This document shows, one piece after another, positions 5,266-32,132 of a stretch of DNA of 64,000 nt (its first letter is position 1; each line of letters begins with the position of its first letter). The translations under genes were made by a program, and so were the position numbers. Origin of the DNA: an uncultured Collinsella sp. (lineage in GTDB: Bacteria; Actinomycetota; Coriobacteriia; Coriobacteriales; Coriobacteriaceae); contig CATXLW010000008.1 in NCBI GenBank assembly GCA_958371715.1, forward strand, positions 16,678 through 80,677, written 5' to 3'. A model generated the notes under the pieces. It had not been told where the DNA came from. It saw only the letters and a program-made list of their open reading frames with translations, and ran no database searches.

Positions 5266-5284
5266 TACTGATATGGTGCCATTT

Positions 5285-5877: not shown

Positions 5878-5884
5878 GCCGCGC

Positions 5885-6973: not shown

Positions 6974-6978
6974 GGACC

Positions 6979-8315: not shown

Positions 8316-8327
8316 GGATGCCGCCTC

Positions 8328-11901: not shown

Positions 11902-12164
11902 TTCTTAGCCTTAACCGTTAATCTGCTTTCTTACGTGCATGTTAGATAGTAGCATTTTGCTGTTTGCACGTAACAGTTAATTGAAAATCGCAATTTCGCT
12001 ATCTGGGGCTTTAGAGCAATTTGCGGATATTTTTTAGCATTTATTTACGCTGGTAGTTAGCTCGCAGCCGACCGACGGTGTTTTACCAACCAGATTGGTA
12101 TCTTTTGTTTAGCTGGTATGGCTTGTGCAATTATTAACTCCTCGTCAACCCGCGCCTAACATGT

Positions 12165-12270
12165 CAGCTTTCCACTTACTTTCCAGCTTTCCACCTAACT
12201 TTCCACTTAACTTTTCAGCTTTCCACCCTAGGTGTTAAGTTAAGTGGAAAGTTGGAAAGCTTGGTGGAGG
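12165..12270. repeat. Cluster of AGCTTTCCAC / ACTTTCCAC boxes (4 direct copies, then an inverted pair)
   Basis: CAGCTTTCCACTTACTTTCCAGCTTTCCACCTAACTTTCCACTTAACTTTTCAGCTTTCCACCCTAGGTGTTAAGTTAAGTGGAAAGTTGGAAAGCTTGGTGGAGG. The right part is the reverse complement of the left, giving an imperfect long palindrome centred near 12230. Confidence 0.75.
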
Positions 12271-12305: not shown

Positions 12306-12512
12306 GCTGGGCAGTTAGTTCAGATACGTATTTTTCTATGCTGATAAAGCCGCGCTATGGTCCCCGGAGAGGGTTCTTTGGCGACTCATTGCACGCAAAT
12401 CGAGCCCAGATAGCTACCGAACCCTAGTTTTGAGCCCCTTTCTTCCCCAAAACGAGCGCCGGATGCGCCTGCTGCGGTCTGGAATTATACGTATCTGAAC
12501 TAACTGTCCAGC
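12306..12512. repeat. 26-bp inverted repeats (25/26 match) flanking a 155-bp segment; inverton-like or MITE-like
   Basis: Left GCTGGGCAGTTAGTTCAGATACGTAT (12306-12331). The reverse complement of the right arm is GCTGGACAGTTAGTTCAGATACGTAT (12487-12512). Confidence 0.7.
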
Positions 12513-12540: not shown

Positions 12541-12575
12541 AGAAAAGGGGCGGTAACCGGGTGGTTGCCGCCCCC
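12541..12575 (-). terminator. Rho-independent terminator of the giant-gene operon
   Basis: The reverse strand reads GGGGCGGCAACC-ACCC-GGTTACCGCCCC followed by TTTTCT, about 25 nt after the stop codon at 12601-12603. Confidence 0.8.
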
Positions 12576-12600
12576 TTTGCGAAGCTAGTCGGCTTCGGAA

Positions 12601-15600
12601 CTAGTGATCGATGCCGTTGAGGTTCACCCTCGTGAGCGTGTAGGTCGCATAGTCGGGCGACTGAGGCGTTGCGCTCATCGCCCCACCTGTGACCAGGCTC
12701 GCCGTCATCACCAGGCGATAGTTCGCGTAGAACTGTCTGGGCTCAACCTGCGTGTTGACCTGAACGGTAAAGGGCAGGTTAAACGTGGTGTCGCCGTTCT
12801 GTGTTCGGAACTTGCCATTCTCCTTCGTCGAGTCAGTAAAGGTGATCGCATTGCCAGCGGCGTTGGCCACGGCAAGCTTACTCTCTGTAACTTTTACGTA
12901 GTTGGAAATGCCATCCGTTACGTCCTCATACGAGCCATCGATCCCGTTGCGGCGTTTCAGCGTGAGCGTGTACACAACTGAATCAGCATCCTTGATTGCC
13001 TCGATGGCGTTGTTAAGCCCGCCCAGCTCATACGTGGCACCCAGGCCAATCGTGCCATTCGCAATCGGGCGCAGGTCATCAACGTTTATGCCAAGCTGCG
13101 ACTTCTTCGGCGCCGAAAGTGCAATGGTCGCATCGCCCTTGTCCATGCGATAGTACCCGACGTTGCCGCGCTCCGTCTGCGTCAGGCTCGAGGTATTAAG
13201 GCCTTCCTTACGCGTCGAAAGCTTGGCGGTATAGGACATCTTGGTACAGGCGTCCTCGCCAGACTGCTTGGACAGGGAGATAACCTTGTTGCAGCCGTCC
13301 GGCGTAAGGCGAATCTCTTCCACTACCGTACGCACGGTAAAGGATCCGCCCGCTGCACGCTTGCGGATTCCGGCAAGGTCATGGTCGAGCGTGAGCCTCA
13401 GTGAGTCATCACCCGTATCCGTCACAATCTGTGTAAACGCAGGCGTCGAAGCGTCATACGGCTCCCAATCGCTGCCACTCCACCTGTAGTTCTGATTGCC
13501 GATGGCAACATAGAACTTCGCAATTGCCGAAGTTCCGCTCGGGAAACTGCTTACTCCCATTAGGTTGTTGTTGGCGCCATAGCGACACAGCGATGTATCG
13601 AGCTGATAGAACAGATGGTCGCTCTCTGTATAGTATTGGCTCGGGCTAAACGTAACCGTATCCATGACATCGAGAGAAAGAACGTAGGCGGCACCGTCCT
13701 CCGACTTCGAAACCGGAATGCACGCCCCATCTTTTTTGTCGACTACATTCTGCTCATAATTGGACAAGATGCTGTATGTCGATGCCGTACTGTTTTGAAT
13801 ATCGTCGCTGCCATCGGTGCGTAAAACATGATGCAGATTCCAAGATATGCGGCCACCCGAAGAATTCGAGTCAATAGACGAAGCCGTAAAACCGTTGATA
13901 CTAGCTTGCGTCACGCCGTCGCCCGACTTGGGCACGTTGACAACTAGGTAGACGCTCTCCGATGCACGCTTCTCTCTGCCGGTATCCTTCTCCTTGGGTA
14001 CCTTTAGCGTATAGCGACTGTTGCTGGGAACGTCAGCACCCGCAACCTTAAACAGCGTCCACTTGCCATCGAGTTTCGCTTTAGCGGTCTCCTCTGCCTC
14101 GTTATCACACACGGTCCATGTGCCGGCGCCATCCTGTGCGGCCCGCACACCCAAGATCTCGCTCAGCCATCGCTCCTGATATGGATTGCCCGCAGAATCC
14201 TTAAAGCCGTCGTTTCCGCTCAGGGAAACGCTCGTTGCTCCGCCTTCGCCCACCGTATAGTGATACTCTCTGCCACCGGCCTTGCCATCAACGTTCGCAT
14301 CGATGAGCGTAAGCTGGGTGCCCTGGGGCAACCTTCCGTCGGCACCATTGAAGAGGATACTCTTGCCGAGCCCCTTCATCGAGCCGCCAGCAGCCATATA
14401 GCTGTCCCAGCCAAAGTCGACTTCCTTCCCATTGGCAGAATTGTATGTCCAGGTAAGCAGACCCGTCATCGGCTCGCCAAAGCTCGTAAGCACGTGTGCA
14501 TCTTTTCCAAGGTTAGCGTAGTCTTTTTCTTTAAATTGAGTGCCGTAATCATACGTTGCAGTGAAATCGATCTCGAGCTTGCGCTTAACGATGATCGGCA
14601 CCTGAACGTTGTAGCTCTGACCCGCCTCGGTAAAGGTAACGGTCAGGAGCGTAAAGCGACCTTTGCCGTTGTCCCAATCGGAGCTTGGGCTAAACGACAT
14701 ATTGTTCTTGCCATTGTTCACTACGCGAAGCGTGGGATTGTTCGACGCGTCACCGTCTTTAACGAACACACCGTCCTTGAGTTGGAAAACCTCTGCTTTG
14801 GCCGTCACGTGCGGATTGGTGCCATTCTCGTTATTCAATCTGCAGGCATCGGAGAAGCCGCCGTTCGTGACGATGTTTAGATAGCTCTTGACCGTCGTGT
14901 TGTCGTTGCCAGAGATCACCAAAACGGGGAAATCCGCTGTGGCTTGGTTGCTGCTTGTATCATTATTCGAATTGAACTTACTGGCCACGGATGAGGCATC
15001 GTAGCTCGACTTATTTTGATAGGCGCCGTTGTCATTAATGCCGCCGATATTCGTGTAGGTGTAGCGATCGGCAACACCGGTGCCTGCCTCGCTCTGGACG
15101 GTCGCCGCGGTGTCGATGGTGGCGCCGTCGCCAAACAGGTAGCGATCGGTGGTGTCGTTGTCGGAGGCACGCGCCGCCAGCGTGCTTACGGGGCTCGTGG
15201 TCACATACGGGCTCGCTGCCGTGGTGGCGGTATTGTCCGCGCCGTAGAGCGTGATCCCCTTGTCAGGTGCTTCCAGTGTGTCGTTATAGTCACCAAACGC
15301 GATATACGACTTCATGTTTACGGCGGCCGCATTGGTCGTGTAAACCATCGGCGGCAGATCACGCGTGGTCTTGCCGTTGCCGAGCTTTACGTTCACGCCC
15401 GCTGCGGAGAGGCTATAGCCGTTTGTGTCAACCTCGCCTAAGAGCACGCCCTGCTTAGAGCCCAATTTGTAGGTATTGCTGTCCATGAGCACGTTTACCA
15501 GATGGAACTGGCCGCGTCCGTCGCCCGCAATGCCGCCGTTGGAGGTTCCGCCAAACGTTGTGTTAGATACCTTTGTGTTGGTGACGTTGATGACGTCGGC

Positions 15601-18600
15601 ACCGCTGTTAATCGCGCCAAGTAGACCGCCGCTCCACCTGCCCTTGATCGTGGCGCTCTCAATCGCGATATTGTTGCAGGCTATGTTCACATTGCTGAAG
15701 TAGTAGCCGATAAGTCCGCCCGAGCATTGGTCGGTGCCGGCAATGTTGATATTCTCGACGCTACAGTCCTCAAACCAGTACGTGTTGGGGCTGCCACTGC
15801 TCGTGACCTCGCCAATCAAGCCGCCCGCATTACGGATGCTATTGTTCGTTCCGGTGGCATCGCCGATGATGGCGCTCTTGGCATCGCCTCCGGCATCAAT
15901 GCGCACGTTGCTTATAGAAATAACGCCTCTATAGGCGCTTCCGACCACACCGCCGGCGCCCATGTACTTATCGGTGTTCGACCCGGTGGCGAGTACATTT
16001 ACCCCAGAGATGACTGCCGTGCTCGATGCGACGGCTTCCGTGATGCCAATTTTGGTGTTCACCGATACGTTACTGGAGGTATAACCGAACACGCCGCCCA
16101 CGTAGGGTGTTGTTCCCGTGGCGGTTATGGTCGAGTTTTTGCCAATAGTCTTCTCGTATACCCCTGTGGCCGCGGTTGTCCACACGCCGCACGGCGAGGC
16201 GATCGCACCCACATAGCCACCGACCTTCTTCTCGCCCGTGACGTTAAGGCCGGTGTATGAGCAGTCACAGAGATTCGCGGGCGCCTGCGTGCCGGAGCCG
16301 AAATTGACCATATAGGTCACGTCGTTATCCGTCCTTCGGCTGGTACGGCCCGAGCTGCCAAGAAGCCCTCCTACGCTCTTTGCGCCCAACACGGTGCAGT
16401 TCTTCATCTGTACGTTGCGGTAGACGCCACGCGTGTTGCCGTCGTAGTTGGCCGTTGCGCCCGCCAAAAGGCCGGTGCCGATGAGGTCGTTCGATGCCGG
16501 TCCCGAGGCAATGCTACCGTTGGCGTCTTTGTACGTGAGCGATACGTTGCAGTTACTAAAGGTGAGGTCTTTGACCTGAGCGCCGTCATTCGCGGTGACG
16601 CTCTGCCCCACATTGGTTGAGGTGAACATCACGGTGCTGAATAGGCCGCCCACGCCCGAGACCTTATAGTCGTCATCGGCATATTCGACGACGCCGTAAG
16701 TGGCATCTTTGGTGCCCACCGTGATGGTGGCCCCGTTGCCGTCGATCGTTGCCACGTGCGGCGTGATGCGGTCGCGATCGGTGGACGCCTCGTTCGAGCT
16801 GCAAGCATTGGAATAGTAACGGCCGCTGAGACCCACGTATCCCGTGCCGTAGCCAGTCATATCATAGGTGGCATTTTCCTTGAACTCCAGGCTCATGCCG
16901 ATCGATTTCGACGCGCACACGTAGCCCGTTTGGTAGTCGGCAGCGTAGGACGCCACCAGGTAGGGCGAATTTACATCGTCATCATGGTTGAGCGGGCCGT
17001 GCCACCCCTGTTTGCCCGGGGCCTTCTGGTCATCGTTTTTGGCGGTTTCGAAATCGCCGGAAGCGCTCGCAGGCTTGCCCACGCAGTCGTAGCTGGCATT
17101 TCGCACCTTACCATATTCCTTGTTGCCAAACAGGTAGCCGTTTATCGCCGGGTTCTGCTTATCGCTGCCCCAGTACGCCTTGGAGCCGCGGAACACGCCA
17201 TAATTAGCGTAGTCAGTATGTGCCGCTCCAGCACCCGCACCCGAGCTAATGATGGCCGAGAGCACCAAAAGGCCCTGGGCGTTTTCCACCGTGGTCACGG
17301 GTGCCTCGGCATCAGTGCCGATATACTTGTTGTCGGTGCCCGTGGTAGTGACGCAGGCAGCTCCCTTGTTTGTGAGCTCGTTGATCTTGTAGTTAGCGTT
17401 ACCGTTTTCGACTTTGCAGCCCTCGCTAAAGGCATAGCCATCAATCACACGACCAACGTAGGGATTGTCGTACTGCCGGAAGTTGCCCGTTCCAAGACCC
17501 TGAGACTTGTCGCTGGTTCCAGCGCGCCAAGACGTCCCTGACATATTGCGGAAGATCACACCGCCGCCCGCAATGGCACCAACGTAACCGCCGATGGGAA
17601 CAAGATGTGGCTTAGTTCCGCCACCAGCAACCGTAAAGCCGGTTGTGGAGTTATCGGGCGTTGTCCCATTCACGGCCACACCGTCGATAATGTTATCGCC
17701 GCCAAGGATGCAGCCGATAACGCCACCGAAGAACGACGTCGGAACACCGTCGGCATCCTTGGCAGAATAAGTAATAGTCGCCGACGCGTTCACATAGCGA
17801 ATATTCAGATCGCGCACCACGCTGCCGTAACTATAGGGAATAAGGCCGCGAAGCGAACCCTCGTTATTCTCTATCTTGATGGTTGCCTTTTTATCACCTT
17901 TAGGGTTGCCAACGATGACGCCACGGAACGGGTTGGCTTTGTTGCCAAAACCGCCAAACGATGCGCCGTCAAGGGTGATCGTATTACCCCCGGTAGGTTC
18001 AATACTGTAGTACGCGCTTTGGATATAGCGGTGCATCATCTCGTCGGAAAGTGTGGCCGAAGGATCAGTGGTGTCGCCGGTCTTCTTTTCCCACTTCTTC
18101 CCAGTGTCTTTCGCCTGCTTATAGACGTACGTAACCTCATTGTCGGTTTTATTGTCGCTGCGGCGAGTACAGAGCGTACTCTGGTTGACGGCAATGGTGA
18201 CCTCCCAACCGTCGAGCGCAGTTTGGTTGTTGATGTAGTTGGCGATGGCGTTCATCTCAGTCGCGTCCTTAACGGCATACGGATCGCCATATGTGCCGCA
18301 TCCCTCTACCAGCTTTGGAATGCGCTGGTTGACTTTAATTTCATGATATTGGACGCCGCTCTCGGTGGCCTTTCCCTTATAAACATAAGGAAGATAGCCA
18401 CCAAACCAAGGCCTGACGTCACCGTCCTTCTTACCATCAACCGTCACATAGCCGCTCACGGCACCATACGTCGCTTCGTCGTAATACCAAAGCTGCTTGC
18501 CCGGGTACTCCGTACTTCCATCAATCTCAGATCCGTATGTCACCTTGCCTGCATCGGCATCGGCATCGGCCTTAGTAAAGGTGTAGTCCGCAGAGCCCGT

Positions 18601-21600
18601 GCTCGTGCTTCCGTAGCCAAAACTCTCCAGCAGGCTCGCATGGGTGAAGATCGTTTTGTTCTTTTGGCTGGGCAAGCTGATTTGCTCAAACTTTGCCGTC
18701 ACCTGATCGGCCTCACTGCCTACACCAAGCTTTCCGAACAGCGACGTAGCCGCCTTGGTGTCACTCGTGTACCCAGTAGTCTTGATATTCTTCGCGTTCA
18801 GGCTCACGTACTTCTGCATCTCGTTGATGAGCAGAGGCATATAGGCGTTAGCATCCGTGGCGCTGTTGGCGCCGTCGACAATCAGATTGTTGAGCGTAAG
18901 ACCATCAATTGAGATCTTTCTAATCTTGGTGCCATTGCCGTCGCTGGACCCATACACGTAGCGGCACACGAGCGCGCCCGAAGAGCTTCCGCTTGCTCCA
19001 TCAGTGTCTTCAGAGCTCTTTCCGTCATTAATAACGGGCCCAACAGTACCACGCAAAGTGACGTTTTTTACTGTGAGATCGCCGTTTGCCACCGTTCGAA
19101 AAAGACCGCAGTGCATGTTCTCGTGCTGGGTAGCATCGGAATTTAGCTTGTTGCCATTCTGCTCGGCCTTGATCTTGGAGTAACAGAAGGTAATGGTCGC
19201 ATTCTCAACCGTCACCTCTCCGCTCGGCTGAGTGGGATAATAGCTGTAGCCGGCCAAATCGATTGTACCCGTTATGGTTATGGAATCATCGAGCCCTGTC
19301 GTGCCATTGGGAACGATTGTCGAACGAATACCTTCGGGAGCATAACGGTAAGCAGACCATAAGAGCAGCTTTTCCGCTGTATCGATTTGACTGCCACTAA
19401 AGCCGCCTTCACAATTCTTAGAGGCTATGTCGAGGTTGTAGAAGTAGCGGGTATTGCCGTTCGTATTCTGGCTTCGACCGAAAGACGAGCGATTATGGTA
19501 GCTGTTGTCTTTTGTGGAATCGCCGTCCATGTCCAGCTTGTTTTTCTGTGTGTGTAGCGAAACGACCGTGTTCCAGTCGGCGTCCATGAGCTTGCTGCCG
19601 TTGTTTGGTTTTACACCGCTGCCAACCCATTCATCGAAGGACGTTACGCCCGACGCAACGATGGCCCCCTCGCCGGTGGGCACCCTATAGGCGGTATCCC
19701 AATAAGCCCTGTCCTCCAAGTACAGGCCTAGGTAGCTCTCGACGCCATATGTCGTCTTATCATCCACCTTGCAGCCGCGGCAAACTAGAACGCCGAGCGT
19801 CTGAGCGGCGCCCGCATTAATGGTTGTGCCCGAGAGATCGATGGCATAGTTGTTGATAATCCAGCGGCCGCTCGCGGCGTATACAAGACCACCGAGTTCC
19901 TTGGAATCATCCGCAGTCGCGGTTATAGAAGCGTTGGTCGTTTTCAGAGCATAAGAGTTTTCATTCTTGTTAATGCTCTCATCTCCGATAGTTACGACCG
20001 CGTTGCCCCAGCTATAACCCAAGAAACCACCCGTGCCATTGAGCTTATCGCCGTTCCTGCCGACTTTCATTTCGAATGAATTGAACGAAAGGCCCGAAAT
20101 GTTCACGTACTTATCAGCTGAGTTGGCTATTGTCCCTGCATTGTAGGTACTCTGTGCGATGCAGCCGATAAGACCACCGACTTGGGCAATCTTGCCGCCG
20201 GCGCAATCGCCAGTTTCGATTGATCCGGCGACTTCGAGGCCCGCAACATTGAATGACGAGCCATAATCGCCCGCATAACCAATGGCGCCGCCAATGCGAC
20301 TATTGCCGTTAAGCGTTTTAGTTGCAGCGATGGTCGCTTGAGCCTTGCTGTTATCCTTAAACGCAACCGTAGAAGCCGCCAGCACGCTGCCCGCAATACC
20401 GCCAATGTTCACGTCATTGGCAAACGTATCATCGCACGCGATATTCGTTTTGCACGTTACGCCAGACAATGACAGGTTGCCGACGATGGCACACGCAAGC
20501 GACCCGGCATCGATAGCCGAACCGTTATCGAACTTCATGGAGCCAGCGATTGTGACGTTGGAGATGGTTGCACCGTTGACGGCCGCGAACAAGCCCAAGC
20601 GGCCGTGGCGGTAGATTTTGCCGTTGCCGTTGCTCGTGTTATTGCCGTCGAGCACGTCTTCACCACGCTTGCCGTACGCCTCGCCGACGGCAAGGTTGAT
20701 TGTGCCGTTGCCATTTGTGCCGCCGCCGTTCAACGTTCCCGAGAAGACTTGCGAGCCGTCTGCACGATCCTGCGTGAAACCCGTCAGGCCCGTGCCCTTG
20801 AGATCAATAGTGCCGTTCACCGTAATGGTCGAGGACTGCAAGATGTTCGGGCTGTTTTCAGAAACGCCCTCGACCATGGAGTAGTAGCCGTTGGTTTGCC
20901 AGGTGATTGCAAGTTTGGCGAAATCCTCAACAGAGGTTAGGGTGTAGGCACCGCCGTCTGATGTCAGCGACGTCGGCAAGGTCAACTTGTGCGAGTTCGG
21001 ATCGAGCGCAATAAAGCTATTGCCCAGGCCCTTACCGTCCAAGCCCTTACCCAAGCGAATGACCTCGCCGTAGGTCGCGATGTCGTCTGTCTTTGAGGCA
21101 GTATTGCTACGTTTGAAGGTCCAACCCTTAGCACCTTTGTCGGTCAGTTCTCCATTAGAGCCATTGCCGGCAGCGAAGATCAGCGCGTTGTGGTTCTCGT
21201 ATACGAGCTGACCCGTCGTGGCGTTCTCGGCAAAACTTGCGCCCGACAGATCCGTGATGCCGCTGAATTTGATTACAGCATTCCACGCGGATCCCGCAAT
21301 TCCCGCGGCACGGTTGCTTTGCGCCTTACCGATAGGATTGTCGCTTGTAAGTTTGAAATCTCGCACGTCAAGGACATTGCGCGTATCGACAACGCCCACG
21401 GCGCCACCGAACTTTCCGGTACCCGTTCGCGCCGAAGCATCTCCCTTGCACGCAACCGTCACGCCGTTGAAGACAACGGCAACGGGCTGCGAGTTAGGAT
21501 TTGCGCTATCGCCAACATTGCCAACAACGCCGCCTGCGTCGGACAACTTGCTCGCAAGGTCAAACTCAATTGAGCACGTATTCTTATTATCTGCATCCTT

Positions 21601-23316
21601 TTCAACAACAAAGGCGCGCAAAGCGCCGTCGTCGTCCGTTTTCGTCGCGAACACCTTGCCGACAAGGCCGCCGTAGCTGCCGTTGACACTAACATCTTCT
21701 GGTAAGGCGAGTTTGCTCTTATACGTCCCGCCTTGCACCACGATGTCTCCATTAGAGATATCGGCCATGCCAAAAAGAGCGCCGGCGCGCTGCGACGCAC
21801 CAAGAGTCACAAGGTCGCCCAGGTCGAACATATTGGACGTAACGGCAAATCCTTGCGCAAAGCTCACGTCGCCGATAACGCCACCAGAGCAAGCGCTGTT
21901 CTCGTCGCCAATATTTAGAGGACACCCAATCTGCTTATTATCCGCGCCCAGTGTGAGCACGGTCGCTTTACCAATAAAACCGCCGCTGGCAGTTGTGCCC
22001 TTGACGGTGAGCGCGTGTAGGTCGAGAGCTTTCGCGACGTTGACCATGGCACCCGTGCTCGAGCCAACGAGTCCTACAACGCCACCGGCGGAGCCGTTCG
22101 TAGACTGGACGGTGGCGGTGGGAACGTTTGCCAGAGTGCCAATGCTCAGGGTCGCACCGTCCTTGACTTCGCCTACGAGCAGGCCAGCGTTGCCAGAGCT
22201 CGTTTTGACGGCTCCGCCTGAGGTCAGATCGTTGGGGAACGTGACGGACTCAACCGTCAAGCTCCCGCTCTCGACCGTGTTGGCAATCAAGCCAATGTTG
22301 CCCGTCGCATTCGCGTTGAGATTCTTTCGAGAATCGGTGAGGCTATAGGTAACGTTCGCAGCAAGGTTGCCCGTCGTCGCACCCAGGAGGGGTGCCGTCA
22401 AGGCGGAAGTCGTATCCTTCACATCAACGTTCACGGGTTCCACGATGTCAACCGACGCGATGAGTGTCTTGCTCTCTTCGCCGTTTTCCGCACCGCTGAC
22501 CTTCGAAGCGACCATCGGCGCGCTATAGCTAGTCGCGCCTACCCACTTTATCCTGACCGTTTTGTTTTGGTCAGACAGCTTGAGGTTATTAAAAACCGTC
22601 CGATCAGTCGTAAGCTCGACGGGACTATCAACGTCCCTATAGATCCTGCCTTCAAACGGACATTCATCACTGCCAAGACCCTGGAAAGACATGCCGTTAT
22701 TAGCCGACTCGGTGAGCTTCGCATCGCCCGTGATGATAACCTTGATCTGCGCATCATAGTAAAGCGAAGCGTCGGCGTTAGACAGGACGGCGAACGCCTC
22801 CGACGACTTGACATCGAGGCTTCGGATTCCGCTCTCGTCGTCTTTGCGCACGATGCTTTCCGCGCCGTTCTTCTCGAGCAGCTCGACGAGCTTACTCAAA
22901 TCCGTGATCGTCGCACCCGCCTGGGCCTCAGCGTCCTCCGAAGTCGCATCATCGGCATCTTGCTCGACATCATCAGCAGCAGCATCCCCTGCCGCATCGT
23001 CGCCCTCCGTCTGGTCGCCCGTGGAATCGGAACCCGCGGCGCTATCGGAAGTATCGCCCGTTGCAGCATCGTCTTTCGCAGCGCCATCCTCAGCGCTGTC
23101 ACCCGCGGCACCAGCATCACTCGCCCCAGACCCATTCGCGGCGTCGCCGTTGGCCTCGCCGCTCTCGGCAGTATCCAACGCCTTCGCAGATGCGGCAGCA
23201 ATCTCGTTCGAGATGTTCTGCCAGCCTGCCGCCACAGCAGGCACCGTGGGCGAGCATGCTTGGAGCACCATGACCACCGTCATGAACTCTGCGAATATGC
23301 GCTTTGCCGTTCTCAT
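12601..23316 (-). CDS. Giant secreted surface protein (3,571 aa) with about 20 GLUG-type repeats (predicted beta-helix) and a ~900-aa non-GLUG C-terminal region
   Basis: Uninterrupted 10.7-kb ORF with an AAGAGG RBS upstream. N-terminal signal MRTAKRIFAEFMTVVMVLQAC (possible lipobox LQAC), then an acidic D/A/G-rich tract. At least 20 GG-hydrophobic-hydrophobic-G cores (GGVVG, GGLVG, GGLIG, GGFIG, GGYVG...) sit in contexts typical of the GLUG motif. No LPXTG or other wall-anchor motif at the C-terminus (...YTLTRVNLNGIDH). Confidence 0.85.
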   Translation of the reverse strand: MRTAKRIFAEFMTVVMVLQACSPTVPAVAAGWQNISNEIAAASAKALDTAESGEANGDAANGSGASDAGAAGDSAEDGAAKDDAATGDTSDSAAGSDSTGDQTEGDDAAGDAAADDVEQDADDATSEDAEAQAGATITDLSKLVELLEKNGAESIVRKDDESGIRSLDVKSSEAFAVLSNADASLYYDAQIKVIITGDAKLTESANNGMSFQGLGSDECPFEGRIYRDVDSPVELTTDRTVFNNLKLSDQNKTVRIKWVGATSYSAPMVASKVSGAENGEESKTLIASVDIVEPVNVDVKDTTSALTAPLLGATTGNLAANVTYSLTDSRKNLNANATGNIGLIANTVESGSLTVESVTFPNDLTSGGAVKTSSGNAGLLVGEVKDGATLSIGTLANVPTATVQSTNGSAGGVVGLVGSSTGAMVNVAKALDLHALTVKGTTASGGFIGKATVLTLGADNKQIGCPLNIGDENSACSGGVIGDVSFAQGFAVTSNMFDLGDLVTLGASQRAGALFGMADISNGDIVVQGGTYKSKLALPEDVSVNGSYGGLVGKVFATKTDDDGALRAFVVEKDADNKNTCSIEFDLASKLSDAGGVVGNVGDSANPNSQPVAVVFNGVTVACKGDASARTGTGKFGGAVGVVDTRNVLDVRDFKLTSDNPIGKAQSNRAAGIAGSAWNAVIKFSGITDLSGASFAENATTGQLVYENHNALIFAAGNGSNGELTDKGAKGWTFKRSNTASKTDDIATYGEVIRLGKGLDGKGLGNSFIALDPNSHKLTLPTSLTSDGGAYTLTSVEDFAKLAITWQTNGYYSMVEGVSENSPNILQSSTITVNGTIDLKGTGLTGFTQDRADGSQVFSGTLNGGGTNGNGTINLAVGEAYGKRGEDVLDGNNTSNGNGKIYRHGRLGLFAAVNGATISNVTIAGSMKFDNGSAIDAGSLACAIVGNLSLSGVTCKTNIACDDTFANDVNIGGIAGSVLAASTVAFKDNSKAQATIAATKTLNGNSRIGGAIGYAGDYGSSFNVAGLEVAGSIETGDCAGGKIAQVGGLIGCIAQSTYNAGTIANSADKYVNISGLSFNSFEMKVGRNGDKLNGTGGFLGYSWGNAVVTIGDESINKNENSYALKTTNASITATADDSKELGGLVYAASGRWIINNYAIDLSGTTINAGAAQTLGVLVCRGCKVDDKTTYGVESYLGLYLEDRAYWDTAYRVPTGEGAIVASGVTSFDEWVGSGVKPNNGSKLMDADWNTVVSLHTQKNKLDMDGDSTKDNSYHNRSSFGRSQNTNGNTRYFYNLDIASKNCEGGFSGSQIDTAEKLLLWSAYRYAPEGIRSTIVPNGTTGLDDSITITGTIDLAGYSYYPTQPSGEVTVENATITFCYSKIKAEQNGNKLNSDATQHENMHCGLFRTVANGDLTVKNVTLRGTVGPVINDGKSSEDTDGASGSSSGALVCRYVYGSSDGNGTKIRKISIDGLTLNNLIVDGANSATDANAYMPLLINEMQKYVSLNAKNIKTTGYTSDTKAATSLFGKLGVGSEADQVTAKFEQISLPSQKNKTIFTHASLLESFGYGSTSTGSADYTFTKADADADAGKVTYGSEIDGSTEYPGKQLWYYDEATYGAVSGYVTVDGKKDGDVRPWFGGYLPYVYKGKATESGVQYHEIKVNQRIPKLVEGCGTYGDPYAVKDATEMNAIANYINNQTALDGWEVTIAVNQSTLCTRRSDNKTDNEVTYVYKQAKDTGKKWEKKTGDTTDPSATLSDEMMHRYIQSAYYSIEPTGGNTITLDGASFGGFGNKANPFRGVIVGNPKGDKKATIKIENNEGSLRGLIPYSYGSVVRDLNIRYVNASATITYSAKDADGVPTSFFGGVIGCILGGDNIIDGVAVNGTTPDNSTTGFTVAGGGTKPHLVPIGGYVGAIAGGGVIFRNMSGTSWRAGTSDKSQGLGTGNFRQYDNPYVGRVIDGYAFSEGCKVENGNANYKINELTNKGAACVTTTGTDNKYIGTDAEAPVTTVENAQGLLVLSAIISSGAGAGAAHTDYANYGVFRGSKAYWGSDKQNPAINGYLFGNKEYGKVRNASYDCVGKPASASGDFETAKNDDQKAPGKQGWHGPLNHDDDVNSPYLVASYAADYQTGYVCASKSIGMSLEFKENATYDMTGYGTGYVGLSGRYYSNACSSNEASTDRDRITPHVATIDGNGATITVGTKDATYGVVEYADDDYKVSGVGGLFSTVMFTSTNVGQSVTANDGAQVKDLTFSNCNVSLTYKDANGSIASGPASNDLIGTGLLAGATANYDGNTRGVYRNVQMKNCTVLGAKSVGGLLGSSGRTSRRTDNDVTYMVNFGSGTQAPANLCDCSYTGLNVTGEKKVGGYVGAIASPCGVWTTAATGVYEKTIGKNSTITATGTTPYVGGVFGYTSSNVSVNTKIGITEAVASSTAVISGVNVLATGSNTDKYMGAGGVVGSAYRGVISISNVRIDAGGDAKSAIIGDATGTNNSIRNAGGLIGEVTSSGSPNTYWFEDCSVENINIAGTDQCSGGLIGYYFSNVNIACNNIAIESATIKGRWSGGLLGAINSGADVINVTNTKVSNTTFGGTSNGGIAGDGRGQFHLVNVLMDSNTYKLGSKQGVLLGEVDTNGYSLSAAGVNVKLGNGKTTRDLPPMVYTTNAAAVNMKSYIAFGDYNDTLEAPDKGITLYGADNTATTAASPYVTTSPVSTLAARASDNDTTDRYLFGDGATIDTAATVQSEAGTGVADRYTYTNIGGINDNGAYQNKSSYDASSVASKFNSNNDTSSNQATADFPVLVISGNDNTTVKSYLNIVTNGGFSDACRLNNENGTNPHVTAKAEVFQLKDGVFVKDGDASNNPTLRVVNNGKNNMSFSPSSDWDNGKGRFTLLTVTFTEAGQSYNVQVPIIVKRKLEIDFTATYDYGTQFKEKDYANLGKDAHVLTSFGEPMTGLLTWTYNSANGKEVDFGWDSYMAAGGSMKGLGKSILFNGADGRLPQGTQLTLIDANVDGKAGGREYHYTVGEGGATSVSLSGNDGFKDSAGNPYQERWLSEILGVRAAQDGAGTWTVCDNEAEETAKAKLDGKWTLFKVAGADVPSNSRYTLKVPKEKDTGREKRASESVYLVVNVPKSGDGVTQASINGFTASSIDSNSSGGRISWNLHHVLRTDGSDDIQNSTASTYSILSNYEQNVVDKKDGACIPVSKSEDGAAYVLSLDVMDTVTFSPSQYYTESDHLFYQLDTSLCRYGANNNLMGVSSFPSGTSAIAKFYVAIGNQNYRWSGSDWEPYDASTPAFTQIVTDTGDDSLRLTLDHDLAGIRKRAAGGSFTVRTVVEEIRLTPDGCNKVISLSKQSGEDACTKMSYTAKLSTRKEGLNTSSLTQTERGNVGYYRMDKGDATIALSAPKKSQLGINVDDLRPIANGTIGLGATYELGGLNNAIEAIKDADSVVYTLTLKRRNGIDGSYEDVTDGISNYVKVTESKLAVANAAGNAITFTDSTKENGKFRTQNGDTTFNLPFTVQVNTQVEPRQFYANYRLVMTASLVTGGAMSATPQSPDYATYTLTRVNLNGIDH

Positions 23317-23355
23317 CGATTCCGTACCTCTTATCCTAAAACTCCGCTTCCAGAG

Positions 23356-24300
23356 TTATCGAGTCTCCGTTGTGCCCGTCAGAGTAGTTCCGTTCACGCT
23401 AATGTCCAGGTCGCCCCAGCCACCGGGCGTTTTGCCGTCCGCTCGATAAAAGTTGACGACCATCGAACCCGGCTCCATGGTGAACGTAGCCTTGCGTTTT
23501 TCAACATTCACCGTCGCGCCATGGTTGATCTCAAAGAACGGGTCGATCTCCACGTTCTCCCCCCACGCGAGCGTGACGTTTGCCGGTGCGCCCGTAACCG
23601 TCACGCGGTAGTTGTACGCAGCGTAATCAGCAAACTTGCCAGCCTCATCGACCAGCGCGCCCTCAACCGCAGCGGTCTTGACCTCGGCCCTCTTTGACGG
23701 CACGACTTTCGCCGCCAGACAGGCTAGCTCGGTGCCGGGGCTCTTCCCCGATACGACCGTGGCCTTAATCACAAAGTATGCTTGTCCCAACTTAGCCTCG
23801 GGGAAGGTCACGGTGTAGTCGTTCTTGGTAGGTTGATTCTCCGGAAGCGTGACGCTGCTACCGGGCTGGGGCGCATAGCTCCACGTGGCGCCATCGAGCC
23901 CGTGCCCCTCGACCGTCAAGGTGTATGTCACATTTTTGTCGTTGCAGAAGTTGCTGTTGCCCAGCAAGTAGTTGTAGATGCTAAAGGTAAAGTTGCATTG
24001 CCCGTTGCTGGGATACACTGTAACGGAGCGCTGGGCATGGGCGAGTTCGTCGTTGCTAGGCGCACTCATATAGCCCGTGAGTAAATCGCTCGCAAACAGG
24101 CTCTGCGCGGTGCCCGTTGCGGCGACGGACTTAAGAAATCCGTTGGCGATGTAGGCGGAATAGGTAAAGTAGCCACCCGCCACGAGCGCCACGGCACAAA
24201 CAAGTGCGATTGCTGCCACAACCAGCTTATTCTTGACTAGGCTTTTGCTTTTTGCCAGCTGCTCGCACTCGGCATCCTGCTGATTCTCTCGCTTCTCCAT
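23356..24300 (-). CDS. Single-pass (N-in) membrane/secreted protein, third of the triad upstream of the giant gene
   Basis: 314 aa with a charged N-terminus and one TM helix LVVAAIALVCAVALVAGGYFTYSAY, then a Thr/Val/Asn-rich beta-type ectodomain. It ends 39 nt upstream of the giant gene. Confidence 0.65.
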   Translation of the reverse strand: MEKRENQQDAECEQLAKSKSLVKNKLVVAAIALVCAVALVAGGYFTYSAYIANGFLKSVAATGTAQSLFASDLLTGYMSAPSNDELAHAQRSVTVYPSNGQCNFTFSIYNYLLGNSNFCNDKNVTYTLTVEGHGLDGATWSYAPQPGSSVTLPENQPTKNDYTVTFPEAKLGQAYFVIKATVVSGKSPGTELACLAAKVVPSKRAEVKTAAVEGALVDEAGKFADYAAYNYRVTVTGAPANVTLAWGENVEIDPFFEINHGATVNVEKRKATFTMEPGSMVVNFYRADGKTPGGWGDLDISVNGTTLTGTTETR

Positions 24301-24314
24301 GTGCGCCCCCTCTC

Positions 24315-25154
24315 CTATTTACCGCTCGTGTTGCGCGCTATCAGGTAGATCACGTCGGTCTCTTTGGTGCTCTCGTCCCACGAAAGCTTGATGATAAAGT
24401 TGAGTGTGTCATTGCCAGTCGAGCCGTCGAGCGTCTTGGCGTTGAGTTCGCTTTTGCCGAATTTCTTGTATCGGTAGAGCGGGCGCGCGTTGCGCTGGAC
24501 GTTTTGATAGTCCTTGAATGTAGGGTCGCTTGCGCCCTCGCCCGGCACGGCTGCCAGACCGTCGTTCTCCTTGTTGATATATTCGAAGCTCGTCAGCAGG
24601 TTCTCTCCGGTTGCTTTCCAGCTATAAGATTTGCCGTCTGCGGTACCGCTCACGTCGGGCGTCTGGAGCGCAGACGTGTTCTCGGCTCTGTACAGCTCAA
24701 TAGTGAGACCCGTAATGTTGGTCGTATTCGCGAGTTGCAGCTCAAAACCGTCACCGCCCGTTTGCACGCAAAACGCGCGCTTGAGCGTCACCGTGTTGCC
24801 AGTCTTGGTATCGCCGTATTCGGGGTTGTAGCTCAGGTCGATCTGCTCTGTTGCCGTAGCGTTGGGGCCCAGCACTTTGAGCTCTGCCGGCTCCTTGATC
24901 TTGCCGACGGTGGAGCCGCGATTGGCATCGACGAACCATCCGAGCGTCAATCCCAGCAACACGAGAAGCACGGCCACCAGACCCACGATGGCCAGGGATT
25001 CGCGACGGTGGTCGCTCACCCAAGCCTTGATGCGCTCGATGCGGCCAGCCGGACGCGCTTCGCCGTGCGAGCCGAACCCGTTGCCGCCGGGGTTTGCCGC
25101 TCCTTCGTTGTGTTTGATATCGCCCTGCTCGCGGGCATTAAGCTGCTCGTCCAT
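24315..25154 (-). CDS. Single-pass membrane/secreted protein, second of the triad
   Basis: 279 aa with a 53-aa cytoplasmic N-tail, TM helix LAIVGLVAVLLVLLGLTLGWFVDAN and a beta-rich ectodomain. It directly abuts the stop of the upstream gene. Confidence 0.65.
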   Translation of the reverse strand: MDEQLNAREQGDIKHNEGAANPGGNGFGSHGEARPAGRIERIKAWVSDHRRESLAIVGLVAVLLVLLGLTLGWFVDANRGSTVGKIKEPAELKVLGPNATATEQIDLSYNPEYGDTKTGNTVTLKRAFCVQTGGDGFELQLANTTNITGLTIELYRAENTSALQTPDVSGTADGKSYSWKATGENLLTSFEYINKENDGLAAVPGEGASDPTFKDYQNVQRNARPLYRYKKFGKSELNAKTLDGSTGNDTLNFIIKLSWDESTKETDVIYLIARNTSGK

Positions 25155-26213
25155 TTATTTATCCGCCTCCTTGGCGGTGAAGCGCACGCGAATGTACTTG
25201 ACGTTCTTGCCGATAATCTCGTCGGCGTTGTTGTAGTAGCCGGCGCAGGTTTCCACATCTGCAGAAGACATGCCGGCCTTGACAGGCGGAACCTTGCCGG
25301 GCGCCCGGCCCGGAACGCTCGTGCTGTCGGCGCGAAAATAGCGCGCGTGGTTCGTGTCGATGTCGCCGACGAGGGTTGTGTATCCCCCCTCGTCGTCTGT
25401 GTTAGCGAAAAGGTTGCCACCGTAGCCGGCGTTGCCCGTGTGAACATAGCTCTTGAACTGCTCCGGCCAAATCCAGTAGAGGGTTTTGGTGACGGTTTCG
25501 GTCGTGCTATTTGAGTCCGCAGCGTAAAAGCTCGACTTTGGGATGGTAAAGCTCTGCGTAATGACGGTGACGCTGGCCCCGTCCTGGGTCACCGTGGTGG
25601 TCGTGGGGACCAGCGGATTCGAGTAAAAGCCAGAGGCGTCTTTGCCCTGAAAAACCAGGATATGACCGCGCACCAAATCTTTAAGCGAGTTGATGATCTC
25701 TTCGTTTTTCGATGCATCCGCAGCAGTGCCGCCCGTGCCCGCAACGCTCGTCTGGACAGAGATTTCCCAGGTCATTTCCACCGTGATATCACGCAGGTCA
25801 TTGCAGAGCGGCCTGACGTTGAGCTGGAGCTGGCCGGCCGACCCCGGAGAGAGACCGCCATCGGCGCTCATGTTATTGAGGTTGAAAAGATTGTTCACGG
25901 CAAGGCTTGTACTGTCCGACGCGTAGTTGTCCTGAGTGTCGTACTTACCCGCCGTGCCGCCCTGCGTTCCCGAGAGCACAAACCGCGGGCCCTTCGCCGC
26001 GATCGTGCTCCCCGTGGCACTCACTCGGTTATTCGCGGCAAACCAGGCCAGGCATGCAAAGATGGCAACGATGGCGGCCAGCACAAACAGACCGCTCACC
26101 AGGAAATCCTTCCAGAAATCCTTGAGGGTCCGCACGTGCTCGTCGGCAGCTTGGCGGTACTCGGCCGCCGTCTTGTGCTGCTGGAGCTCGCTATGTCGGT
26201 CCATGCCACTCAT
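25155..26213 (-). CDS. Single-pass membrane/secreted protein, first of the triad; weak TasA/CalY-like features
   Basis: 352 aa with a 37-aa charged N-tail and TM helix LVSGLFVLAAIVAIFACLAWFAANN. This is followed by RVSATGSTIAAKGPRFVLSG and LSPGSAGQLQLNV, which resemble the mature N-terminus and first strands of TasA/camelysin-type proteins (comparison from memory only). Confidence 0.6.
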   Translation of the reverse strand: MSGMDRHSELQQHKTAAEYRQAADEHVRTLKDFWKDFLVSGLFVLAAIVAIFACLAWFAANNRVSATGSTIAAKGPRFVLSGTQGGTAGKYDTQDNYASDSTSLAVNNLFNLNNMSADGGLSPGSAGQLQLNVRPLCNDLRDITVEMTWEISVQTSVAGTGGTAADASKNEEIINSLKDLVRGHILVFQGKDASGFYSNPLVPTTTTVTQDGASVTVITQSFTIPKSSFYAADSNSTTETVTKTLYWIWPEQFKSYVHTGNAGYGGNLFANTDDEGGYTTLVGDIDTNHARYFRADSTSVPGRAPGKVPPVKAGMSSADVETCAGYYNNADEIIGKNVKYIRVRFTAKEADK

Positions 26214-26392
26214 CGTTTACGTTTGCCCTGCTAGCGGGCGTGCCATCCTTTCCGCTTGGGTGTGCTCAATCCATTGCTCGTAGGCATAGAATTCAGGCAG
26301 AATACAACACCATACGATAAGGTAAAAGAATAGCATTGACCTGCGGTTTGCTCCACAGCGCAAGCCTTAATGATGTCTTAAAAGTCAAACCC

Positions 26393-26458
26393 TTGGTGCA
26401 AGTGGTCAGGTTACTTCGCGCCAACATGGTGCAAACAAACCTGACCCCCTTGCACCAA
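26393..26458. promoter_or_regulatory. ~20-bp inverted repeat TTGGTGCAAGTGGTCAGGTT / AACCTGACCCCCTTGCACCAA, with a third GGTGCAA copy in the loop
   Basis: Read from the sequence. It lies 40 nt after the stop of the ATPase gene and 180-245 nt upstream of the triad operon start. It could be a terminator for the former or an operator for the latter. Confidence 0.4.
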
Positions 26459-26497
26459 TCCGTAGCGCCGGGCGGAGAACACACGGCGCGGCGCCCC

Positions 26498-27802
26498 TTA
26501 ACGCCCCAGCGCGCGCACGGGTATCACGTAGATACCGTCCTCGACCTCGCGAGCGTACTCACCCACCCCCACAATCACGGCCATAAACTCCGGTTCGCGT
26601 GTGCGTGAACGAGGATTTCCACAGACCTTCTTGCGAACGCGCTTGAGGCTCTCAACGCCGGCGCTCGCCTTATCTTCGCTCACCTTAATCTCAAAGGCGG
26701 CCCACCGTCCGTCGGCTAGCTGCACGATAGCATCGCACTCAAGGCCCGAATCGTCGCGATAATAGCGCACGGGCGTGCTATCCAGCAGGTCGAGCGAACG
26801 TGCGTAGACCGAAAGGTCGCGTATGACCAAATTCTCAAACACCAGACCAAATGTCTGCCAGTCGGCAAGCAGCGCCTGCAAGGACATACCTAGCAAGGCG
26901 CAAGCAAGGCTCGGATCTGCCAGATAGCGCTTGGGCTTGACGGTAAAGCGCCGTTTGTCGCGCGCGGCGGGAACCCAACCGGGGACCTCCTCGAGAATGA
27001 ACATGCCTTTGAGGGCATCCAGGTACCTACGCACCTTGGTCTCATCGGCAAACGCTGCAGGCTCCTCCTCGGCACCGAACATATCCATAAGAATCGTTTT
27101 ATACGTGGTCGCCTGTCCCAGATTGCGCGCGATCGATGCGGAGACTCGACGAGCAATATCGGGGTCGAGACCAACCGCCGAGAAGCTGCTCGAAAACGTA
27201 GTGTTGAGATATTCGCGGGCGATGAGCTGGGCGTCAGCCGAAACCATATCGATCGCCTCGGGCCAGCCGCCGCGGCAAGCGGCTTCGACAAGCCCCGGTG
27301 TATCGCCATTGCACCGGCAGGGCTCAAAACGATGCTCAAACAAGCCCGCCAGACTTACCTTGCCGTTGGACTCACCTGTCTCGGCAAGCGTCATGGGGTG
27401 CATGCGGACGCGGCCGATGCGGCCGGCTCCACTATGCGCGGGCGCCTCCGCCTTTGAGCCAAACGCAGGCGTGGCGGAACCCGTGAGGATATAGGCGCCG
27501 CGCGTGCCCCGGGCACGGTCAACCTCGTGTCTAACGTAGTCCCAAATCTGGGGAACGCGCTGCCACTCATCGATAATATGCGGACGGTCTCCCAGCAGCA
27601 TCATCGCCGGATCGGCACGCGCGAGGTCGAGATTCTCGTCGACATACGAGACGGACGCCCCGTGCTCAAGCGCGGCCCACGTCTTGCCGCACCACTTGGT
27701 GCCTGCAATCTCGACCGCCCCAAAGACACGAAGGTAGCGCTCGATTTGCGCATCCACGATACGTGGGATGTATCCGTCCCGATGTAGCCTCTCGCCTGCC
27801 AT
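26498..27802 (-). CDS. AAA+ ATPase of the AAA_14/DUF4143 family
   Basis: 434 aa. N-terminal P-loop region AGTKWCGKTW, the IIDEWQ Walker-B-like motif, and overall similarity by eye to the second copy at 46936-48132. Confidence 0.7.
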   Translation of the reverse strand: MAGERLHRDGYIPRIVDAQIERYLRVFGAVEIAGTKWCGKTWAALEHGASVSYVDENLDLARADPAMMLLGDRPHIIDEWQRVPQIWDYVRHEVDRARGTRGAYILTGSATPAFGSKAEAPAHSGAGRIGRVRMHPMTLAETGESNGKVSLAGLFEHRFEPCRCNGDTPGLVEAACRGGWPEAIDMVSADAQLIAREYLNTTFSSSFSAVGLDPDIARRVSASIARNLGQATTYKTILMDMFGAEEEPAAFADETKVRRYLDALKGMFILEEVPGWVPAARDKRRFTVKPKRYLADPSLACALLGMSLQALLADWQTFGLVFENLVIRDLSVYARSLDLLDSTPVRYYRDDSGLECDAIVQLADGRWAAFEIKVSEDKASAGVESLKRVRKKVCGNPRSRTREPEFMAVIVGVGEYAREVEDGIYVIPVRALGR

Positions 27803-30795: not shown

Positions 30796-30836
30796 ATCGG
30801 AACTCGACACCGCCCACTTTGCAGAATCTAGGCATC

Positions 30837-32120: not shown

Positions 32121-32132
32121 CAAGATGACGAC

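Follow-up and report, generated by a model that had tools for sequence, protein, structure and literature searches.

A Collinsella cassette of three small single-helix proteins and a giant protein without a recognisable anchor, and its apparent relation to SipW-associated surface systems

The donor strand of TasA comprises residues 28-38 and lies directly after the SipW cleavage site (PMC9674648). In Clostridium perfringens, the operon sipW-bsaA-bsaB-bsaC specifies membrane-anchored donor-strand fibres together with a larger co-operonic secreted protein, BsaC, whose secretion is linked to type IV pilus genes (PMC11580942). Here we analysed a 64,000-nt stretch of DNA (the window) from an uncultured Collinsella sp. 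(GenBank assembly GCA_958371715.1, contig CATXLW010000008.1, positions 16,678 to 80,677 of the forward strand), which carries a cassette of four genes encoding three small proteins, T1, T2 and T3 (together the triad), and a giant protein of 3,571 residues (Table 1). Of the Actinomycetota in the human gut, Collinsella is one of the most prevalent. We found that the triad and the giant are linked almost without exception, and that the cassette is apparently the strain-variable part of a larger SipW-associated surface-assembly system common to Coriobacteriia and Clostridia. If this is true, SipW/TasA-type fibre biology would extend beyond the biofilms of Bacillus and Clostridium to dominant gut anaerobes.

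In operon logic and signal class, the cassette is like a SipW/TasA-type system, but the tests for membership in the TasA family failed, and the conserved giant partner is an addition. Like the tapA-sipW-tasA operon of Bacillus subtilis (TasA fibres, with TapA as anchor or nucleator), it appears to encode exported beta-sandwich proteins with N-terminal signals ending in aromatic-Ala-aromatic, it is associated with a signal peptidase I of the archaeal/endoplasmic reticulum (ER) type (TIGR02228/SipW class), and its system has several paralogous subunits. In the monomer model, the conserved segment just past the putative T1 cleavage site lacked structure, like the donor strand of TasA. However, T1-T3 had no detectable sequence relationship to TasA and the T1 model had no significant fold relationship to it. 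The Collinsella operon holds no sipW gene, and the cytoplasmic n-region of T1 is long and conserved. B. subtilis has two proteins where seven or eight T1-superfamily paralogues occur here, and the tasA operon has no counterpart to the giant partner of 3,400-3,600 residues.

The bsa operon of C. perfringens similarly combines SipW-class fibre proteins with a larger co-operonic secreted protein that lacks LPXTG. Its link to type IV pilus genes is also paralleled in two related loci (L097 and L106), where A24 prepilin peptidase and PilZ genes flank the cassette. However, BsaC is a 70-kDa vWA protein, whereas the giant is a repeat protein of 3,500 residues without a vWA domain, and the TasA/BsaA-type models that we used did not recognise the triad. 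Sortase-assembled pili with large tip adhesins share with the cassette the co-transcription of small subunit genes with a gene for a large adhesin-like protein and the presence of strain-variable alleles. Unlike them, the cassette has no LPXTG, pilin motif, E-box or sortase, and the hydrophobic segment of its small proteins is N-terminal, not C-terminal. The csc clusters of Lactobacillales (CscA-D/WxL) resemble the cassette in encoding small surface proteins and a large one, which are thought to form a non-covalent surface complex. They differ in their signal class, and no WxL, DUF916 or LPXTG domain was found in the cassette with Pfam.

Linkage of the triad and the giant

A T1 relative, and by this measure the cassette, was found in at least 251 species-level representative genomes of GTDB, the best 80 of which were all Collinsella or Coriobacteriaceae; yet all four protein families are unannotated. 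In the first 85 loci, T1, T2, T3 and the giant were colinear. A metagenome scan with distant T1 relatives yielded 80 further loci. The genome-contig search returned Collinsella only, and the naming of hosts for the low-GC loci rests on one plasmid record (Ruminococcus albus) and on GC content.

Linkage was counted only in loci with enough flanking sequence, and profile searches were restricted to the open reading frames (ORFs) of all loci. T2 directly followed T1 in 127 of 127 high-GC loci and in 25 of 26 low-GC loci. T3 came after T2 in all 118 high-GC loci and in 15 of the 22 low-GC loci, and an adjoining ORF of at least 900 residues, the giant, was present in 112/112 and 15/17 loci, respectively. 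Three members of the low-GC set (L089, L124 and L142) had a variant gene order, with the giant upstream of T1-T2. The low-GC locus L086 had giants on either side of the triad (giant-T1-T2-T3-giant; 3-9695 and 12739-21000). Thus, there are genomes with tandem cassettes or with two cargo proteins.

The giants in loci of GC 0.37-0.47 were full-length colinear homologues of the window giant (phmmer, E down to 1e-256). The conjugative megaplasmid pRUMAL02 of R. albus 7 (NC_014825, 142625-156981) carries T1-like, T1, T2 and T3 genes and a gene for a giant of 3,425 residues, which matched the window giant with a phmmer E value of 1.6e-81 and in which LPXTG was not found. All five genes bear the annotation 'hypothetical protein', and the literature searched described neither the cassette nor the R. 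albus 7 accessions. Because this cultured and sequenced strain carries the same cassette, the question is directly testable.

The linkage of triad and giant is near-absolute and crosses phyla (Coriobacteriia and Clostridia). An earlier note, made from the letters of the window alone, had proposed such a linked unit and had named beforehand what would speak against it: a match of the triad to an unrelated family, a lack of linkage, or an anchor in the giant. Our neighbourhood survey found the linkage in Collinsella and in low-GC lineages including R. albus 7, and none of the three adverse findings was made. Therefore, we consider the unit to be real.

The operon structure was also as the earlier note had described it. 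The coordinates of the four co-directional ORFs matched exactly, and the intergenic gaps of T1/T2, T2/T3 and T3/giant were 0, 14 and 39 nt. The strong terminator after the giant was located as the hairpin GGGGGCGG...CCGCCCC followed by TTTTCT, with a folding energy (dG) of -34.9 kcal/mol and a z of -4.1, which was equalled by 0 of 200 shuffles. Both the 284-bp leader and its palindrome were located. The T1-proximal ~150 nt of the leader were kept in all of the 85 Collinsella loci, whether the DUF4143 gene upstream was present or absent, with 89% nucleotide identity even in the 47% allele class. The palindrome was present in 52/52 loci with DUF4143 and in 8/33 loci without it. A comparison of the leader with Rfam revealed no family, only generic hairpin-type matches below threshold, and no riboswitch was found.

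N-termini of the triad and the SipW-type neighbourhood

No significant match was found for T1, T2 or T3 in Pfam, NCBIfam, PHROGs, PADLOC or PDB sequences. T3 gave a weak Pfam match to the Ig-like FixG_C (E 0.008), and an exact-sequence look-up of T3 returned no record. T1 had 886 homologues in a 90% database and 303 clusters in a 50% representative library, none of them with a name or a Pfam domain. The three proteins had been described as bitopic membrane proteins; we confirmed a single N-terminal hydrophobic helix in each, but the N-termini look like SipW-class signals or signal anchors and may be cleaved.

Among 108 diverse T1 sequences, W57 was invariant (108), and A56, F58 and N61 were kept in 102, 105 and 100 sequences, respectively. 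V64 was found in 88 and A, G or S at position 66 in 91. The (-3,-1) rule held at V64-x-A66 in 81% of the 108 sequences, compared with 0-7% at the registers just upstream, and the helix and this conserved V-x-A site are ~7 residues apart. The juxtamembrane motif is A-W-F..N..V-x-A in T1 and T2 and T-Y-x-A-Y...F-[AT]-S in T3. In the T3 family alignment, Y47, A49, F69, S71 and L74 were invariant (T-Y-S-A-Y, then F69-A-S71-D-L-L74), and the N-terminus of low-GC T3 reads GGSYAAYTSQ...VRFTSNYL. The corresponding pattern of TasA/CalY is GGGT[WF]A[AY]F[NS]D..F[AA][SG]GTLDL. It seemed that the signal class of the triad is SipW-like and that the T3 N-terminus resembles the N-termini of TasA/CalY.

The SipW-cognate signal model TIGR04088 gave matches in the correct position but below the cut-off in low-GC T3 (E 0.64) and in a T1-like paralogue (E 0.032, 14.4 bits vs a cut-off of 19), and did not match T1-T3 of the window in NCBIfam. 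PF12389 (TasA/camelysin, Peptidase_M73) matched neither T1-T3 of the window nor their low-GC versions nor the T1-like paralogues, and the family profiles of T1 and T3 retrieved no TasA or CalY chain among PDB sequences at E<=10. The triad proteins were also rejected as type IV pilins or pseudopilins: no pilin model of Pfam or NCBIfam was matched, and the N-termini of T1-T3 lack a class III motif.

We also compared the triad proteins with each other. T1 and T2 were related by hhalign (probability 90%, E 1.4e-6), mainly over the N-terminal part, and no relationship was detectable between T3 and T1 (19%) or T3 and T2 (5%). BLASTP found no match among the three proteins. Paralogy across the whole triad was thus rejected.

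The AlphaFold2 (AF2) model of T1 was based on 108 sequences, with a predicted local distance difference test (pLDDT) score of 86 and a predicted template modelling (pTM) score of 0.76. Between a single long helix at 16-60 (a cytoplasmic amphipathic part and a transmembrane part) and a beta-sandwich into which two helices were inserted, it had a conserved segment of low confidence (61-77). In being both conserved and of low confidence in the model, segment 61-77 shows the pattern expected of a putative donor strand. A Foldseek search of the PDB with this model gave 0 matches at E<=1e-3; the top-ranked hits were generic sandwiches, and the TasA fibre 8aur ranked 20th (E 0.04, TM 0.22/0.31).

Two further groups of genes, units A and C, adjoined the cassette in some lineages. 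Unit A comprises a PilZ protein, a conserved protein of ~356-430 residues with no Pfam domain, and one or two short-signal T1-like paralogues, in which the signal reads ...ALG[SA]AT[FY]AWFV.NN.V.A. It lay upstream of the cassette in L097 and L106 (GC 0.39) and in nine loci of GC ~0.56. The family of its paralogues had 2,029 matches, including a protein of Collinsella aerofaciens at 69% identity. Unit C consists of four small T1-like proteins with [TS][YF]AW[FY] signals (matches to the T1 hidden Markov model, E 1e-9 to 9e-6), together with an S26 peptidase and a ~570-residue membrane AAA+ protein. The S26 peptidases were of the archaeal/ER (SipW) type, scoring 109 and 90 bits with TIGR02228 (cut-off 51.85), and Bacillus SipW was the next best model. 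Unit C came directly after the giant in L173 and L174, and after giant-T1-T2 in low-GC L089, where the peptidase lay 6 kb past the cassette. In Collinsella, units A and C shared a second locus, apart from the cassette (L166 and L168). The unit C proteins of L173 were 45-72% identical to their counterparts in L089 and L168.

The window contained no gene of unit A or unit C. As both units adjoin the cassette elsewhere, the four-gene module seems to be one dispersed part of a SipW-associated system. The earlier note could not map the arrangement to any characterised system. It remains true that no established family was matched, but the adjacency to a SipW-type peptidase cluster in related lineages maps the cassette, as a divergent variant, onto SipW/TasA-type systems.

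An A24 peptidase was found near the cassette only in L097 and L106, where it and a PilZ gene lie beside T1-like paralogues (L097 1363-1809 and 1872-2552; L106 667-1359). This is reminiscent of C. perfringens, in which BsaC is reported to depend on type IV pilus genes for its secretion. The ~570-residue protein after the SipW-type peptidase (L089 18662-20398; L173 20654-21994) had N-terminal transmembrane segments and a weak AAA+ match of the McrB/MoxR type. Against PDB sequences it gave only a weak McrB-type AAA+ match, and the search with the PilZ-adjacent protein was uninformative. The ~570-residue protein was 66% identical between lineages of GC 0.47 and GC 0.57, which is unusually conserved for this system.

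The giant, its variable N-terminal part and a possible assembly

The giant had no significant match in Pfam, NCBIfam, PHROGs, PADLOC or PDB sequences. Its signal peptide, recognised before, was confirmed as a Sec-type signal, and it is followed by an acidic low-complexity stretch of ~100 residues. We found 24 G-[GA]-hydrophobic-x-G motifs in four clusters, with a spacing of ~30-45 residues; self-comparison revealed no BLAST-level similarity. Such clustered periodic motifs are also characteristic of GLUG-motif proteins (PF07581), and GLUG modules are often preceded by a 'G.G..DPY' start, as in this giant. However, PF07581 was matched neither by the whole giant at E<=1, nor by nine overlapping 520-residue pieces at E<=10, nor by the low-GC giants. 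Thus, of the about 20 GLUG-type repeats claimed earlier, the resemblance stands and the assignment to the family, which failed at every threshold tried, was rejected. Across phyla, relatives are colinear with the giant and conserved from end to end, so that it does not represent a variable repeat array.

The core of the giant (residues ~1500-2000) was 41-45% identical between the two GC classes, compared with 21-32% in most other windows of the alignment. A search with it retrieved only 24 fragmentary matches and no Pfam domain. Its AF2 model was poor (pLDDT 49, with only residues ~1680-1850 reaching 70-87) and found non-significant beta-helix matches only in Foldseek; no claim on the fold of the core is upheld. 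The C-terminus, aligned with R. albus and five metagenomic lineages, was conserved across phyla; the phmmer match paired residues 3405-3546 of the query with 3247-3389 of the target.

In agreement with the earlier note, the window giant had no LP.T[GAS] motif, no hydrophobic 19-mer, no C-terminal transmembrane helix and no wall-binding domain in Pfam. It was therefore rejected as a sortase/LPXTG substrate. Judged from the sequences, a known anchor is absent from the giant in every lineage, apart from a clade-limited lipobox-like motif. This motif, VLQAC21 (residues 1-21, 23254-23316), fits the PROSITE PS51257-type pattern and was perfectly conserved in the clade of the window. The 47% allele class had FQAL at this position, and the cysteine was absent from all low-GC lineages. 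The giant may thus be lipid-anchored in the clade of the window only, and lipoprotein anchoring was rejected as a family-wide feature.

In five loci, L171 (6280-17007), L173 (5223-16049), L112, L125 and L155, the giant was split into 2-3 consecutive or overlapping ORFs, for example of 1252+748+1585 residues. These could be frameshift pseudogenes, phase variation or assembly errors. As the giants are split in several assemblies, the protein database holds mostly fragments of them.

Identity to the window among Collinsella loci ranged over 47-98% for T1, 44-100% for T2, 46-96% for T3, 34-97% for giant residues 1-600 and 57-100% for giant residues 1501-2100. Mosaics were observed; in L001, the N-terminal part of the giant was 34% identical and the middle 87%. 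We analysed co-variation by the pairwise divergence of 101 high-GC loci. The divergence of T1, T2, T3 and the first 400-500 alignment columns of the giant correlated with r = 0.93-0.99. Comparatively, the triad correlated with the rest of the giant at r 0.1-0.25, and this rest formed a block of its own (r = 0.7-0.95). Stepwise windows of the giant correlated with the triad at r 0.87-0.98 up to residue ~476, at 0.01-0.15 over the next five 100-column steps and at 0.01-0.33 over all later windows listed, so that the boundary at residue ~476 was sharp (0.87 to 0.10). T1 residues 1-71 were identical between 47% allele classes except for K14M, and divergence began at residue 72. The nearly invariant T1 segment and the correlation boundary together delimit the exchanged unit, from the start of the T1 ectodomain to giant residue ~476. 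Thus, the triad ectodomains and the first ~475 residues of the giant are exchanged as one allelic block in Collinsella, and their co-variation fits a co-adapted triad-giant interface.

The explanation that we favour, with roughly even confidence, is that T1-T3, exported by a SipW-class route, form a base or short fibre on which the separately exported giant docks non-covalently. It keeps the earlier idea of the triad as the anchoring or fibre partner of the giant. We infer cleavage of T1-T3, strand complementation, docking of the giant and surface exposure. T1-T3 would be inserted N-in/C-out and trimmed by a SipW-type peptidase a few residues past the helix. The conserved N-terminal strand freed in this way would permit assembly by strand complementation, as in TasA/TapA and BsaA, and the product would be a membrane-proximal base or short fibre. 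The giant would be exported by Sec and dock on this base, most probably with the N-terminal stretch of ~475 residues that is inherited as one block with the triad ectodomains, and its remainder might extend through the wall as a rod rich in beta-helix. That the alleles are so extremely diverse suggests exposure to selection by host immunity or phages. If true, this model would explain how a giant surface protein without an anchor is retained on a Gram-positive cell, and the hypervariable, recombining surface locus would probably shape strain-level interactions with host immunoglobulin A, mucus or phages.

We put forward only tentatively, and with more doubt than belief, a Gram-positive surface organelle of a new class, in which a heteromeric strand-complemented fibre or base of 7-8 T1-superfamily paralogues, SipW-processed, AAA+-assisted and controlled by PilZ (cyclic di-GMP), would display the ~3,500-residue beta-helical giant without a covalent anchor. 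Its docking interface (the triad ectodomains and the N-terminal ~475 residues of the giant) would be swapped between strains as an antigenic cassette.

Some observations weigh against the base-or-fibre explanation. The n-region of T1 is long, with a median of 31 residues, and conserved; this would suit a retained anchor and is uncommon in a cleaved signal. Membership of the triad in the TasA/camelysin family was rejected, as the Pfam, PDB-profile and Foldseek tests failed or were weak. Neither the window nor the 10 kb on either side of the cassette in the 85 Collinsella loci contained a sipW gene. Within the major clade alone, the correlation was only 0.64-0.67 (giant residues 25-208) and had faded by residue ~300. 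Moreover, the co-variation of the triad with the N-terminus of the giant is inseparable from simple physical linkage.

Some of the same observations would suit a heteromeric membrane platform such as the earlier note had suggested, in which T1-T3 are permanently bitopic with uncleaved signal anchors and hold the giant through their ectodomains, SipW being irrelevant to the operon. Each protein has one hydrophobic helix, continuous over 16-60 in the T1 model, and the conserved cytoplasmic segment of T1 (EEYRQ.A.EH...LK.FWK.F), identical between allele classes, suggests a function of its own. The lack of sipW near the cassette in Collinsella agrees with such a platform, as does the membrane anchoring of BsaA fibres (PMC11580942), since some subunit must stay in the membrane. 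However, the V-x-A site beyond the T1 helix is conserved, the short-signal T1-like paralogues bear the same AWF motif, and a SipW-type peptidase adjoins the cassette in L173, L174 and L089 and is encoded elsewhere in the genome of Collinsella. We regard the platform as the chief alternative, possible but unlikely.

It is improbable, in our view, that the triad is a dedicated export or folding aid (chaperone-like, usher-like or a conduit across the wall) and not a structural partner, the giant then being released or held otherwise. A beta-rich protein of 3,500 residues probably needs help in crossing the wall, the genes stand in a strict order in which translation of the small proteins precedes that of the giant, co-operonic BsaC of C. 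perfringens requires accessory type IV pilus proteins for its secretion, and A24 peptidase and PilZ genes adjoin the cassette in L097 and L106. Against this, no ATPase, channel or chaperone signature was found in the triad, and the hypervariability of its ectodomains (44-100% identity) is typical of structural proteins that are exposed, not of machinery. The upstream position of the giant in L089, L124 and L142 also implied that the gene order is not essential.

We give similarly little credence to functional independence, with the giant as a lipoprotein-anchored or freely secreted adhesin in this clade and the triad as separate matrix proteins. The giant does have an ordinary signal peptide of its own and, in all major-clade loci, the PROSITE-type lipobox VLQAC21; but the cysteine is missing from the 47% class and from the low-GC lineages, and the linkage of triad and giant persists everywhere. 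One leader and one terminator are also common to the four genes.

Chromosomal site, composition and flanking elements

Table 1. Positions of the cassette features and immediate neighbours in the window
Feature	Position	Strand	Basis or remark
DUF4143/AAA_14 ATPase	26498-27802	minus	between enoate reductase and cassette
Leader/promoter region upstream of T1, 284 bp	26214-26497	minus	sequence; conservation among Collinsella loci
Palindrome/hairpin in leader	26393-26458	minus	inverted repeats I1 and I2; 40-105 nt past DUF4143 stop codon
T1 (352 aa)	25155-26213	minus	ORF; architecture: cytoplasmic amphipathic helix, transmembrane helix, AWF..N..V-x-A segment, beta-sandwich ectodomain
T1 residues 1-66, putative SipW-class signal/signal-anchor	26016-26213	minus	ends at candidate cleavage site V64-S-A66
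T2 (279 aa)	24315-25154	minus	ORF; architecture: N-terminal transmembrane helix ending LGWFVDAN; beta-rich ectodomain
T3 (314 aa)	23356-24300	minus	ORF; architecture: N-terminal transmembrane helix ending T-Y-S-A-Y; F-A-S-D-L-L segment; beta-rich ectodomain
Giant (3,571 aa)	12601-23316	minus	ORF
Giant signal peptide, ~aa 1-30	23227-23316	minus	K/R-rich n-region, hydrophobic core, Ala-X-Ala-type sites in every lineage
Giant aa ~31-476: acidic low-complexity spacer (~aa 45-135) and first domain	21889-23226	minus	co-varies with triad ectodomains
Four G-[GA]-hydrophobic-x-G motif clusters, aa 411-641, 972-1100, 1864-1917, 2316-2598	15523-22086	minus	presumed beta-helix-like
Giant conserved core, aa 1480-2080	17077-18879	minus	most constrained part between high-GC and low-GC lineages
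Giant conserved C-terminal domain, ~aa 3400-3571	12604-13119	minus	motifs QLGIN, YANY[KR]V.L[TS]A.L, DY..YT.A[RK]
Intrinsic terminator of operon	12543-12578	minus	hairpin directly 3' of giant stop codon
Helix-turn-helix (HTH) transposase-OrfA-like gene (134 aa)	11497-11901		downstream flank of cassette

Every Collinsella locus examined has the cassette at the same fixed position in the chromosome, and both junctions are conserved. In the first 85 loci it came directly after the same Oxidored_FMN gene, and this flank was 95-99% identical between Collinsella loci. Downstream in the strain locus L171, the giant was followed by an additional AlbA_2 gene, then by the same HTH OrfA-like gene and the hydrogenase. 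Therefore, both junctions are fixed, and the HTH gene belongs to the site. The DUF4143 ATPase was present in 52/85 loci and absent from 33/85; it is a presence/absence polymorphism and does not mark a border of the cassette. Other flanking genes in the window encode Ech/Hyc-type hydrogenase subunits, the enoate reductase (Oxidored_FMN) and, further on, a tyrosine integrase.

The block had been described as less GC-rich than its flanks, which is real in both GC content (0.53-0.59 vs 0.60-0.66 in the surroundings) and third-position GC content (GC3; 0.67-0.76 in the four genes vs 0.81-0.88 in the flanking hydrogenase and Oxidored_FMN genes). The compositional dip agrees with an older transfer, since cassettes homologous to this one occur at GC 0.37, and also with the unusual (hypervariable and mosaic) evolutionary regime of the cassette. 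The IS3-OrfA-like gene and the DUF4143 ATPase that had been described as bracketing the block are both there, but the former is resident and the latter varies independently.

A recently acquired mobile island (the earlier note had suggested horizontal acquisition) or a phage-derived or defence-related module is hardly credible: the low GC and GC3, the HTH transposase-like neighbour, the DUF4143 gene (PADLOC PDC-S01), the integrase/TraG element at 30.7-39 kb and the plasmid-borne cassette of R. albus would agree with it, but the site and junctions were identical across the Collinsella loci seen, so that the island fails the presence/absence test, DUF4143 comes and goes independently of the cassette, and the four proteins had no PHROGs, PADLOC or phage match. 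The horizontal component is instead twofold: alleles are exchanged within the cassette, and the cassette itself, plasmid-borne in R. albus, has spread between phyla at an earlier time.

Several other elements were observed near the cassette. Just downstream of the terminator is a pair of 31-nt inverted repeats (12306-12336 and 12482-12512; 90% complementary, 145 nt between them), which look like a small element bounded by inverted repeats, similar to a miniature inverted-repeat transposable element, or a protein-binding site. Dense direct and inverted CTTTCCAC / GTGGAAAG repeats with 19-nt units, which are iteron-like, occupy 12157-12268, in the interval from the terminator to the HTH gene. 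The DUF4143/AAA_14 ATPase next to the leader matched the PADLOC candidate defence family PDC-S01 (E 5e-54), and a second DUF4143/AAA_14 gene is located at 46936-48132. A tyrosine integrase (30708-32120), a MobL-like relaxase (35918-37270) and a TraG-type coupling protein of a type IV secretion system (37267-39228) lie in a region with GC up to 0.70. This region, 30708-39228, looks like an integrative mobilisable or conjugative element separate from the cassette. The window also contains a tRNA gene at 45787-45860.

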